Source: an uncultured Hyphomicrobiales bacterium
Lineage (GTDB): Bacteria; Pseudomonadota; Alphaproteobacteria; Rhizobiales; Xanthobacteraceae
Assembly: GCA_903839845.1 (NCBI GenBank)
Contig: CAIMEA010000079.1
Coordinates: 4,189-68,188, forward strand
Direction: 5' to 3'
Length of the DNA stretch: 64,000 nucleotides
The position numbers and the translations under genes are program-made. A model generated the notes under the pieces. It was not told the origin of the DNA, searched no databases, and was given only the letters and a program-made list of their open reading frames with translations. Positions within the stretch are counted from its first letter, which is position 1, and each line of letters begins with the position of its first letter. This document shows positions 1,235 through 7,262 of the stretch, piece by piece.

Positions 1235-1660
1235 GTGGCGCCTGTCATTCTTCGCAGAGAGATCACCATCGCCTGGGGCGACTGCGATCCCGCCGGCATT
1301 GTCTTCAATCCCCGGTTTTTCGAATTCTTCGACGCCAGCACCTGGCAACTTTTCGATCTGGCGCTGCGCGTCAAGCCGCATCAACTCAACGATGCTTACG
1401 GCATCATCGGCATCCCGCTGGTCGACGCTCGCGCCAATTTCGTCAAGGCGGTGAAATTCGGCGACGCGGCCGAGATTGCCACGCGCGCCACCAAATTCGG
1501 CCGCTCCAGTTTCGAGATTGAACACCGCCTCAGCGTTGGCGGCGAATTGCATGTCGAGGGCAACGAGACACGGGTCTGGGCGGCGAAAGATCCCGCCGAT
1601 CCGGACAGGATCAAAGGCATCGCCTTTCCTCCTGGTGTCGTCGCGAAGTTTGGGGGCTGA
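1235..1660 (+). CDS. Acyl-CoA thioesterase (4-hydroxybenzoyl-CoA thioesterase/hotdog family)
   Basis: WGDCDPAGIVFNPRFFEFFD motif; converges on boxB. GTG 1235 has RBS GAGGA (ORF track starts at TTG 1214). Confidence 0.85.
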   Translation: MAPVILRREITIAWGDCDPAGIVFNPRFFEFFDASTWQLFDLALRVKPHQLNDAYGIIGIPLVDARANFVKAVKFGDAAEIATRATKFGRSSFEIEHRLSVGGELHVEGNETRVWAAKDPADPDRIKGIAFPPGVVAKFGG

Positions 1661-1664
1661 CGAC

Positions 1665-3107
1665 TTACGCGATCTTCACGTATTCGAAATCGCCCGGCTT
1701 GTTGTCGATGCCGACCTTGGGCGGTGCGATCCAGCTGGCGAATTTGCCCGGTTCGCTTTCCGGCTGCATCAGGCTTTCGATGAAATCCCTGTCGCCGTCG
1801 GACGGCAGGAAGTCGCCGCGCCGTTCGGCCCATTGCGCGTCGGTCAACTGGTTGCCATCGACATCGGCCTTGATCTTGGAAAATTCGCCGATGTGGCGAT
1901 GAAAGGCGACGCTCGGCAGCTTGATCTGGAACGGGATGCCGAAACCTTCGATGACCTTGTTCCAGCGGCCGACCCCGACATTGCAGTCGACGACATAATC
2001 GTCGCGCAGCCGCATGTTGAGCGCCGACAATGCCGGCGCGTCGACATTCACGATCTTGCCGTCGACCACGCGCAGCACCGGATAGATGTCATTCTCCAAC
2101 TGATGGTCGTCCTTGAGCCGATCCTCGCGGAAACGGCCCTTGATGCCGGAATGGAAGGCATTGGCCGCATTGGTCGAAATCTCGTTGCCGAACAGGTCGA
2201 GCGTCAGCGAGAAATGGAGATTCGCCTTCTTCTGGATGGTCGGCAGATCGATGACGCCGAGCTTGCGCACGGCGGCGATATCATAGGGATCCGAGATGCC
2301 GGCTTGTTTCATCGCCTCGCAGGTCTTCTGGATGACCCGGGTGACGCCGGTCTCGCCGACGAACATATGATGCGCTTCTTCGGTCAGCATGAAGCGGCAG
2401 GTGCGCGACAGCGGATCGAAGCCGGATTGCGCCAGCGCCTCGAGCTGCATCTTGCCGTCACGGTCGGTGAAGAAGGTGAACATGAAGAACGACAGCCAAT
2501 CCGGCGTCTTCTCGTTGAAGGCGCCCAGCATGCGCGGCGTATCGGCGTCGCCGGAACGGCGCTGCAACAGCGCTTCCGCTTCCTCACGGCCATCGGCGCC
2601 GAAATATTTTTGCAACAGATAGACCATGGCCCAGAGATGGCGGCCTTCCTCGACATTGACCTGGAACAGGTTGCGCAGATCGTAGAGCGAAGGCGCGGTC
2701 TTGCCGAGATGGCGCTGCTGCTCGACCGAGGCCGGCTCAGTGTCGCCCTGGATGACAATCAAGCGGCGTAACAGTGCGCGATATTCTCCCGGCACTTCCT
2801 GCCAGACCGGCTCGCCCTTGTGGCGGCCGAAGGGAATGGTGCGGCCTTCCTGCGCCGGCGCCAGCAGCACGCCCCAGCGATACTCCGGCATGCGCACGTA
2901 GTCGAACTTGGCCCAGCCTTTCGGATCGACGCTGATCGCCGTGCGCAGATAGACGAGCGATTCCTGGAAGCCTTCCGGCCCCATGTCGTTCCACCAGCTG
3001 ATATAGCCCGGGTGCCATTTCTCCAGCGCATGCTTGACGCGCACGTCGCTGCCAAGGCCGACATTGTTCGGGATCAGGCCGTCGTAATCGACCGCGGCGA
3101 TGTTCAT
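1665..3107 (-). CDS. boxB: Benzoyl-CoA 2,3-epoxidase, diiron subunit BoxB
   Basis: QGDTEPASVEQQ, VNVEEGRHLW and LTEEAHH diiron ExxH motifs; directly downstream of boxC. Confidence 0.95.
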   Translation of the reverse strand: MNIAAVDYDGLIPNNVGLGSDVRVKHALEKWHPGYISWWNDMGPEGFQESLVYLRTAISVDPKGWAKFDYVRMPEYRWGVLLAPAQEGRTIPFGRHKGEPVWQEVPGEYRALLRRLIVIQGDTEPASVEQQRHLGKTAPSLYDLRNLFQVNVEEGRHLWAMVYLLQKYFGADGREEAEALLQRRSGDADTPRMLGAFNEKTPDWLSFFMFTFFTDRDGKMQLEALAQSGFDPLSRTCRFMLTEEAHHMFVGETGVTRVIQKTCEAMKQAGISDPYDIAAVRKLGVIDLPTIQKKANLHFSLTLDLFGNEISTNAANAFHSGIKGRFREDRLKDDHQLENDIYPVLRVVDGKIVNVDAPALSALNMRLRDDYVVDCNVGVGRWNKVIEGFGIPFQIKLPSVAFHRHIGEFSKIKADVDGNQLTDAQWAERRGDFLPSDGDRDFIESLMQPESEPGKFASWIAPPKVGIDNKPGDFEYVKIA

Positions 3108-3109
3108 GG

Positions 3110-5858: not shown

Positions 5859-5905
5859 AAACACAAGCCGCCAACCGAGGAGCCGGTCACCGCCGGAAAA
5901 CGATC

Positions 5906-6934
5906 ATGAGCGATATCATCAAGACCGACGTGCTGATCATCGGCGCGGGGCCGGTCGGCCTGTTCGCCGTGTTCGAACTTGGCCTCTTGGACATCAAGGC
6001 GCATCTGGTCGACATTCTCGACAAGGTCGGCGGACAATGCGCCGAGCTTTATCCGGAAAAGCCGATCTACGACATTCCCGGCATTCCGTTGATCACCGGC
6101 CACGGGCTTTCCGAGGCCCTGATGGAACAGATCAAGCCGTTCCACCCGACCTTCCACCTCGGCGAAATGGTCACGACGATCGAGAACATCGGCGACCCTT
6201 TGTTCCGGGTGACGACCGATACCGGCAAAACGTTCGAATGCAAGTCGGTGGTGATCGCGGCCGGCGGCGGTTCGTTCCAGCCCAAGCGTCCGCCAATCGC
6301 CGGCATCGAGCCTTACGAGGACAAGTCGGTGTTCTATGCCGTACGCAAAATGGAAAATTTCCGCGGCAAGGACATCATGATTGTCGGCGGCGGCGATTCG
6401 GCGCTCGACTGGACGCTCAACCTGCAACCGATCGCCAAGCGGCTGACTTTGGTGCATCGGCGCGATGACTTTCGCGGCGCGCCCGACAGCGTCAACAAGA
6501 TGCGTGCGCTGGTCGCCGCCGGCAGCATGGACCTGCGCATCGGCCAGGTATCGGAGCTTGAGGGCGCCGACGGACAACTTGCCGCCGCCTCGGTCAAGGA
6601 CAAGGATGGCGCCGTGACCCGCGTCGCCTGCGACGCCATGCTGCCGTTCTTTGGCCTGACGATGAAGCTCGGTCCGGTGGCGGACTGGGGGCTGGAAATG
6701 GACGGCGAACTGGTCAAGGTCGATGTGTCGACTTTCGAGTCCAACCGTCCCGGCATCTTCGCCATCGGCGACATCAACACATATCCGGGAAAGCTCAAGC
6801 TGATCCTTTCGGGCTTTCACGAGGGAGCACTCATGTCGCAAAGAGTGCATCACTACATCCATCCGGAAAAGCGGCTGGTGTTTCAGTACACGACCTCCTC
6901 CACCAGCCTGCAGAAGAAGCTCGGAGTGGCCTAG
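5906..6934 (+). CDS. Ferredoxin-NADP+ reductase, thioredoxin-reductase type
   Basis: [11 protein letters not shown] motif, [49 protein letters not shown]; no CxxC. Confidence 0.9.
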
Positions 6935-6938
6935 TCCC

Positions 6939-7262
6939 ATGCCGAACGTCACCTTTATCGAACACGATGGCACCGTTCACACCGTCGAGGCCGAGCTTGG
7001 CGCGACCGTGATGGAAACCGCGTTGAAGAACGATGTCTCGAGCATCGTCGCCGAATGCGGCGGCGGCTGCACCTGTGCCACCTGCATGGTCTATGTCGAC
7101 GATGCCTGGAGCGCCCTGGTCGGTCCGCCGTCCGCCGACGAGGAATACCAGCTCGACAGCGCCTTCGAGGTGAAGCCGACCTCGCGGCTGTCTTGCCAGA
7201 TCAAGATCACCGAAGCGCTCGACGGACTCATCGTGCGCACGCCGGCCTATCAGGGGCGTTAA
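6939..7262 (+). CDS. 2Fe-2S ferredoxin (adrenodoxin/putidaredoxin/FdVI class)
   Basis: CGGGCTCATC...SRLSCQI cluster motif; 4 nt after FNR stop. Confidence 0.9.
   Translation: MPNVTFIEHDGTVHTVEAELGATVMETALKNDVSSIVAECGGGCTCATCMVYVDDAWSALVGPPSADEEYQLDSAFEVKPTSRLSCQIKITEALDGLIVRTPAYQGR

Follow-up and report, generated by a model that had tools for sequence, protein, structure and literature searches.

In Azoarcus and Aromatoleum, the diiron epoxidase BoxB is reduced by BoxA, a fused reductase made up of a 2x[4Fe-4S] part and an FAD/NADPH part. To our knowledge, biochemical work on the benzoyl-CoA epoxidase has been confined to its BoxA-dependent form. Clusters that lack boxA are counted in genome surveys as incomplete or non-functional; in the literature we searched, the absence of BoxA appears only as such an 'incomplete cluster', and no alternative BoxB reductase is proposed (PMC10803450). 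Here we analyse a boxA-less cluster on contig CAIMEA010000079.1 from an uncultured Hyphomicrobiales bacterium (genome G000; 240 contigs, 99.76% complete), in which boxC-boxB are transcribed away from boxR and the genes of a ferredoxin-NADP+ reductase (FNR) and a [2Fe-2S] ferredoxin. All coordinates are positions in the 64,000-nt stretch of this contig that was analysed (the window), and congeners are genomes of Pseudolabrys. The bacterium is itself a soil-dwelling Pseudolabrys; the nearest named loci come from Pseudolabrys sp. metagenome-assembled genomes. An earlier note on the window had proposed that the FNR and the ferredoxin replace BoxA under the control of BoxR. Comparison across the family makes it rather probable, in our estimation, that the pair, above all the ferredoxin, would supply BoxB with electrons.

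BoxA and the fnr-fdx pair in box clusters

The core of the cluster consists of five genes:

1665-3107, minus strand: boxB, oxygenase component of the diiron benzoyl-CoA 2,3-epoxidase (TIGR03225, 875.5 bits against a cut-off of 499.1)
3110-4798, minus strand: boxC, 2,3-epoxybenzoyl-CoA dihydrolase (TIGR03222, 920.8 bits against a cut-off of 712.3)
4935-5858, plus strand: boxR, repressor of the BoxR/BzdR type with an XRE helix-turn-helix and a shikimate-kinase-like part (PF01202, PF13560, PF01381)
5906-6934, plus strand: fnr, FNR of the thioredoxin-reductase (TrxR) type, box-linked lineage (best solved relative, R. palustris FNR 5YGQ, 604 bits)
6939-7262, plus strand: fdx, vertebrate-type [2Fe-2S] ferredoxin, 'Fdx107' paralog (PF00111)

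Every gene named in the earlier note is present where it was placed, and the spacings reported there, 47 nt between boxR and fnr and 4 nt between fnr and fdx, are correct. boxC and boxB are separated by 2 nt, and the divergent boxC and boxR by 136 nt. The alignment of BoxB with A. evansii BoxB (3PER; 682 bits, ~68% identity) covers both proteins from end to end, and the residues aligned to E120, E150, H153, D211, E240 and H243 of 3PER, which we take to be the diiron ligands, are all identical. Because its score is well above the family cut-off and these six positions are kept, BoxB looks functional and would need an electron donor. BoxR likewise matches its protein family, NF006015 (PRK08154), with 382 bits against a cut-off of 204. 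The predicted FNR is related over its full length to 5YGQ and less closely to 3AB1 (237 bits) and 3LZW (217 bits). It carries the motifs GAGPVG and GGGDSA, no CxxC, and Tyr328, the C-terminal stacking tyrosine named in PMC9137726, features by which we assign the gene at 5906-6934 to the TrxR-type FNRs. The gene at 6939-7262 can be assigned in the same way to the vertebrate-type (adrenodoxin/putidaredoxin) [2Fe-2S] ferredoxins: the ligand motif C-x5-C-x2-C...C is formed by Cys40, Cys46, Cys49 and Cys86, and the closest solved relatives are 3HUI (127 bits), 4LTU, FdVI, terpredoxin and putidaredoxin (~80 bits).

The earlier note saw no boxA in the window and suggested a search of the genome, which bears this out genome-wide. 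With the BoxA profile TIGR03224, nothing in the genome reached the cut-off, the best match being the FNR-like domain of CysJ (80 bits), and tblastn of the genome with two BoxA proteins returned only FNR-like domains and no BoxA. A split or hidden BoxA was rejected, since the searches brought up nothing beyond generic 4Fe-4S ferredoxins and FNR-like domains. The same holds for the genus. In a first draw, BoxB was present in 19 of 24 Pseudolabrys genomes and BoxA in none of the 24; in a second draw, all six congeners that are ≥ 99% complete had BoxB and none had BoxA. Overall, BoxA was found in 0/30 congeners, some of them assembled in 1 to 4 contigs.

In the first draw, 16 genomes have boxCB divergent from boxR-fnr-fdx in synteny, with 74-90% protein identity (a range that excludes the near-identical G006), and the arrangement recurs in three more fetched congeners, in G178 and G213 as judged from coordinates, and in 13 further loci from named Pseudolabrys or metagenome-assembled genomes, none of which has boxA (0/13). 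The linkage is thus kept across > 25 Pseudolabrys species, beside boxCB without BoxA. Spacers in the congeners are mostly 30-90 nt between boxR and fnr, and 4-230 nt between fnr and fdx. A second genus, g63, provides a contrast within one group. Three BoxA-less g63 genomes have boxB-boxC divergent from fnr-fdx with no boxR in between, boxR being encoded elsewhere. In BoxA-bearing g63 genomes, by contrast, the order is boxA-boxB-boxC, the native fdx-fnr locus lies elsewhere, and no fnr-fdx is found beside the box genes. BoxB is 82-84% identical to ours in both kinds of g63 genome. By coordinate comparison, fnr is near boxB in none of ~45 BoxA-bearing genomes.

Absence of BoxA is not particular to this cluster, as over half of the BoxB carriers in this large soil family lack it. 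Of 251 family genomes drawn evenly, 164 had BoxB and only 71 had BoxA; at least 93 BoxB carriers, spread over roughly half of the genera with BoxB, are thus without BoxA. In most BoxA-less clusters, whether Bradyrhizobium-like or not, no reductase gene lies near the box genes. The co-occurrence of fnr-fdx with boxA-less clusters that the earlier note had proposed to look for was seen in Pseudolabrys and the three g63 genomes, and not in most other BoxA-less clusters. In named Bradyrhizobium strains (L148-L185), boxR is divergent from a ligase gene, with boxC-boxB further along, and many have no boxA within 10 kb of boxB; whole-genome searches of the Bradyrhizobium-like genera in the draw found no BoxA. 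Since BoxC of B. diazoefficiens (blr1080) is induced in microoxia and in bacteroids according to proteomics (PMC6515984), BoxA-less clusters are at least expressed. A recurrent reductase downstream of boxB was also considered and rejected: none of the ten genes scanned 3' of boxB in BoxA-less clusters of other lineages encodes a reductase, nor does any in Bradyrhizobium-like clusters.

Two further arrangements were noted. In G027, a genome of the same order but of a different family, the gene behind boxB is adenylate-cyclase-like and broken into two open reading frames (ORFs), and an IS630 transposase fragment also follows (L045:7120-9039); BoxA was not found in the complete genome, and no fnr-fdx accompanies its loss. 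This suggests that BoxA was lost there through an insertion sequence, and we set the case aside as uninformative for the present cluster. In G061 (genus g38), a ferredoxin gene is convergent with boxR and is followed by boxC-boxB, a ligase gene and hcrBAC (L125:6574-19209), and boxA lies on a separate contig, adjoining two other CoA ligase genes.

Origin of the box-linked FNR and ferredoxin

The earlier note cautioned that FNR-Fdx pairs are also housekeeping genes in this order. In this family, the usual housekeeping arrangement is the reverse of the one seen here. The usual locus in other genera has fdxHK, sometimes a second ferredoxin gene, and then fnr, matching the RPA3956/RPA3954 arrangement of R. 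palustris; the ferredoxin lies upstream of fnr and is a different paralog. TrxR-type FNR is single-copy in 206 of the 251 family genomes, with or without BoxB or BoxA. Our genome keeps fdxHK on contig C106, at the ancestral syntenic locus, with no fnr beside it.

The box-linked FNR is not the gene that would be expected at that locus. Two congeners, G010 and G245, have a native FNR in the ancestral fdxHK-fnr arrangement. Their LeuA proteins are 86-89% identical to ours, as expected within a genus, and their native FNRs only 72-73%; the FNRs of other genera reach 75-81%. The FNR tree places the box-linked sequences of the two genera apart from their congeners' native FNRs. Approximately unbiased (AU) tests rejected a single clade of all Pseudolabrys FNRs (p-AU 0.0019) and of all g63 FNRs (p-AU 0.0006), did not reject a single clade of all box-linked FNRs (p-AU 0.16) and rejected one of the FNR-linked BoxBs (p-AU 0.0005), with the reservation that these p-values are indicative only, the groups having been named after the trees were seen. 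The identities and the AU tests together reject a simple relocation of native fnr, and the phylogeny shows the box-linked FNR to be a distinct lineage rather than the vertical ortholog of the congeners' native enzyme. On the simplest reading, an fnr-fdx pair came to BoxA-less boxCB in a single event with transfer or in two events, after which most species lost the native fnr. The loss went the other way in G245, which has boxR-fdx without fnr and keeps its native fnr; G021 has no BoxB and only the native pair.

The box-linked ferredoxin is 54% identical to the housekeeping paralog on C106, and in the ferredoxin tree the 'Fdx107' group is distinct from the fdxHK clade with 96% support. Because G245 retains boxR-fdx in the absence of fnr, the ferredoxin is the constant box-linked component, and it is likely to be the specific partner of BoxB. 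Downstream of fdx, no P450 or other ferredoxin-dependent enzyme was found; such a client was rejected, since what follows is tRNA-Lys, an LTXXQ protein, leuA, PPK2 and others. The boxR-fnr-fdx unit is bounded by convergent, unrelated genes.

Promoter region, cluster edges and 4-hydroxybenzoyl-CoA reductase genes

Two operator-like sites were read from the sequence of the boxC-boxR spacer:

4822-4835, no strand assigned: BoxR-operator-like site TGCATTATTTTGCA (TGCA-N6-TGCA), on the boxC side
4906-4919, no strand assigned: second such site, CGCATTATAATGCA, 15 nt ahead of the boxR start codon

BoxR and BzdR are reported to bind TGCA repeats that form longer palindromes (PMC6449761). The boxC-side site is kept in all seven Pseudolabrys boxC-boxR spacers examined, six of them identical and one reading TGCATTATTATGCA, and the core of the second site, GCATTATA(A/T)TGCATG, is also kept in congeners. 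In g63, the spacer between boxC and fnr contains two related sites upstream of fnr. No terminator-like site was found between boxR, fnr and fdx, and the two downstream genes are probably co-transcribed with boxR from a promoter that the putative BoxR operators overlap. The control of fnr-fdx by BoxR that the earlier note proposed thus gains conserved operator-like sites in the divergent region, from which such control may be inferred.

The remaining features lie at the edges of the cluster:

2-325, minus strand: start of cysJ, the operon running on with cysI on the contig, to the left of the window
348-1196, minus strand: conserved ORF of 282 amino acids, between cysJ and the thioesterase gene
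1214-1660, plus strand: 4HBT-family acyl-CoA thioesterase (PF13279 and PF03061)
7298-7373, minus strand: tRNA-Lys(CTT), boundary of the unit (ARAGORN)
7496-7529, no strand assigned: bidirectional terminator-like hairpin, the first such site 3' of fdx

As the earlier note had it, a convergent thioesterase gene directly follows boxC-boxB, the stop codons of boxB and the thioesterase being 4 nt apart. The thioesterase gene is kept at the same cluster edge in congeners. The ORF at 348-1196, which had no match in Pfam or NCBIfam, is kept at the same position in congeners with 43-80% identity. The note's statement that the window has no benzoate-CoA ligase also stands: none was found on this contig, and one is encoded outside the cluster on contig C204 (TIGR02262, 754.7 bits). 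At the other end, tRNA-Lys(CTT) occupies the equivalent position in congener G006. A tRNA gene is likewise found at the fdx end of the module in g63, in this case tRNA-Gly(CCC) (L062:12328-12402 and L063:13033-13107). A tRNA at this end would fit a module inserted as an island.

The earlier picture of the cluster was incomplete in one respect that could not be seen from the window. In most congeners, hcrC-hcrA-hcrB and a gene of the benzoate-CoA ligase family, convergent with boxB, lie between the thioesterase gene and boxB. hcrCAB are present in at least 10 fetched Pseudolabrys genomes and in six more among the named loci. The segment spans L040:3278-9003 in congener G005 and is also found in L033, L035-L038, L041, L042, L062-L064 and L126. 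Both hcrCAB and the ligase gene occur in 3/3 fnr-linked g63 genomes and not in the box clusters of BoxA-bearing g63; in one of the latter, G137, hcrA is on another contig. The alpha (TIGR03194, 1153 bits) and beta (TIGR03195, 414 bits) subunits score above their cut-offs, and gamma (237 bits) just below. 4-Hydroxybenzoyl-CoA reductase takes electrons from ferredoxin in Thauera aromatica. HcrCAB is usually thought of as anaerobic; in these clusters it is combined with an aerobic epoxidase. Our genome has no HcrA, HcrB or HcrC ortholog, the best HcrA match being 34% identical and no TIGR03194 match being found at 1e-250, and it has lost hcrCAB together with the linked ligase gene.

Proposed electron supply to BoxB and comparison with known systems

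The chain that we favour would run as follows. NADPH would reduce the FAD of the TrxR-type FNR, which would in turn pass single electrons to the [2Fe-2S] ferredoxin; for each turnover, the ferredoxin would hand two of them to the BoxB diiron centre. BoxB would thereby epoxidise benzoyl-CoA, and BoxC would then cleave the ring. Benzoyl-CoA would release BoxR, upon which expression of fnr and fdx would rise. FNR would be a general enzyme in this scheme, its box-linked copy having also taken over the housekeeping role from a native copy that is gone. Each electron-transfer step here is one that we infer from the genes. The replacement of BoxA by the pair, as the earlier note put it, draws support from the absence of BoxA, the conserved linkage, the contrast within g63 and the operator-like sites; it needed correction as to the role of FNR, the housekeeping gene order, the breadth of BoxA loss and the Hcr genes.

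Several observations weigh against this proposal. The box-linked FNR is the only TrxR-type FNR of this genome; it therefore also has to be the housekeeping enzyme, and would be retained whatever BoxB needs. The earlier note would have given up its proposal if this were the sole housekeeping pair and unresponsive to benzoate. FNR is indeed the sole copy, but this does not settle the matter, since it is the box-linked copy that took the place of the native one. It would also be awkward for a housekeeping gene to be governed by a benzoyl-CoA-responsive repressor alone, and with no other FNR copy one must assume a basal or second promoter. The R. palustris FNR ortholog is reported to react poorly with its [2Fe-2S] ferredoxin RPA3956 in vitro (PMC9137726). 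Among the at least 93 BoxA-less BoxB genomes, only Pseudolabrys and three g63 genomes have fnr-fdx nearby; because most have none, the supply of BoxB can evidently act in trans and does not depend on linkage. Four other genera, among them one with BoxA (g67), also have the Fdx107 paralog at the position between fdxHK and fnr, so that it is not exclusive to box clusters. The Hcr enzyme of most congeners and three g63 genomes is a rival candidate, as an alternative or additional client of the ferredoxin. The p-values of the AU tests, with groups named after the trees were seen, belong on this side as well.

These points feed into three competing explanations. A housekeeping FNR and ferredoxin might have come to lie beside the box genes by accident, through rearrangement or insertion of an island, with BoxB drawing on the general pool of reduced ferredoxin or flavodoxin. 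We regard this as unlikely. It would account for the single FNR copy, here and in most of the family irrespective of BoxB or BoxA, for the many BoxA-less clusters with no reductase nearby and for Fdx107 in BoxA-bearing genera; an accident would not be expected to persist across > 25 species with 74-90% identity or to recur in g63 only in BoxA-less members. Nor does it sit well with a separate FNR lineage that displaced the native gene, with operator-like sites upstream of fnr in g63, or with a unit bounded by convergent, unrelated genes. Decidedly less probable, in our judgement, is that the pair was recruited for HcrCAB, fnr-fdx being a leftover in our genome that was retained as its FNR is now essential. 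hcrCAB do share the cluster in the majority of congeners and in each of the three fnr-linked g63 genomes, are missing from the box clusters of BoxA-bearing g63, and encode an enzyme that depends on ferredoxin in T. aromatica. Yet fnr-fdx lies at the boxC/boxR end, where it goes with the promoter region of the box genes and not with the hcr operon. Moreover, an HcrA ortholog is missing altogether from our genome, G088, G178, G213 and G274, while our genome, G088 and G274 keep boxCB-boxR-fnr-fdx, as do G178 and G213 by coordinates only; fnr and hcr lie apart in at least 14 further genomes of the family that have Hcr. Both roles could also hold together.

It is very improbable that another dedicated reductase supplies BoxB, be it PaaE, the neighbouring CysJ or a BoxA hidden in an assembly gap. 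Our genome does encode a true PaaE (TIGR02160, 451 bits, contig C72); cysJ is 1.3 kb from the cluster, its FNR-like domain being the best BoxA match of the genome, and the assembly is in 240 contigs. As a shared reductase PaaE was rejected, being absent from all six other congeners that are ≥ 99% complete (0/6) and from the BoxA-less genera g18, g24, g31, g32, g33 and g41. CysJ was rejected as a BoxA substitute, since cysI follows cysJ as in an ordinary sulfite reductase operon. A gap is at odds with BoxA being found in 0/30 congeners, among them assemblies of 1 to 4 contigs. As a separate observation, the paaC-paaD-paaE segment of our genome lies on the 3.6-kb contig C72 (1313-2362), and its PaaE scores above the curated cut-off.

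Replacement of BoxA by the FNR-ferredoxin pair would carry several consequences. The Pseudolabrys cluster points to a concrete, testable BoxA substitute. If the proposal is correct, a diiron CoA-ester epoxidase can exchange a fused reductase for a modular ferredoxin chain, the poorly understood alphaproteobacterial TrxR-type FNR gains a defined physiological client, and predictions of benzoate degradation in soils and rhizospheres, Bradyrhizobium included, would be revised upward. A broader reading, possible but in our view rather doubtful, is that TrxR-type FNR and [2Fe-2S] ferredoxin are the physiological BoxB reductase in all BoxA-less Xanthobacteraceae, including Bradyrhizobium, that this chain, acting in trans elsewhere, has been captured in cis only in the Pseudolabrys cluster, and that the same ferredoxin also drives 4-hydroxybenzoyl-CoA reductase in the full cluster. 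This would amount to an NADPH-powered, oxygen-tolerant hybrid route from 4-hydroxybenzoate via benzoyl-CoA to the 2,3-epoxide, carried by a single module that is mobile between genera.

Among described systems, the closest is the BoxABC pathway with BoxR of Azoarcus/Aromatoleum evansii, Azoarcus sp. CIB and Burkholderiales (EC 1.14.13.208). The present cluster shares with it BoxB, BoxC, a repressor of the BoxR type, TGCA-repeat operators (putative here), the divergent promoter layout and a benzoate-CoA ligase encoded elsewhere in the genome. It differs in that BoxA is absent and boxR is followed by genes for a separate TrxR-type FAD reductase of unrelated fold and a separate [2Fe-2S] ferredoxin; a ligase gene and boxD are also missing from the cluster in this genome. 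The phenylacetyl-CoA epoxidase PaaABCDE is a homologous diiron CoA-ester epoxidase that depends on PaaE, an NADPH-linked iron-sulfur flavoprotein. PaaE is a single fused protein of FNR-like and [2Fe-2S] parts encoded in the paa operon, whereas the two proteins here are separate and belong to other families. According to a review, PaaE is non-essential in some strains (PMC13186573).

The proposed chain itself is most like those of class I P450s, such as putidaredoxin reductase/putidaredoxin and PuR/Pux of R. palustris, where electrons pass from NAD(P)H through an FAD reductase and a vertebrate-type [2Fe-2S] ferredoxin to an oxygenase; the ferredoxin of our cluster is closest to solved members of that family. 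Unlike in those chains, the proposed acceptor is a diiron epoxidase rather than a haem P450, no P450 gene is nearby, and the reductase is a TrxR-type FNR instead of a ferredoxin reductase of the glutathione-reductase type. The FNR and ferredoxin of R. palustris (5YGQ; RPA3956/RPA3954) offer a full-length match to our FNR and correspond to the family-wide fdxHK-fnr locus. In the Pseudolabrys cluster, in contrast, a separate FNR lineage is embedded among the box genes, fnr precedes fdx, and the ferredoxin is a different paralog.

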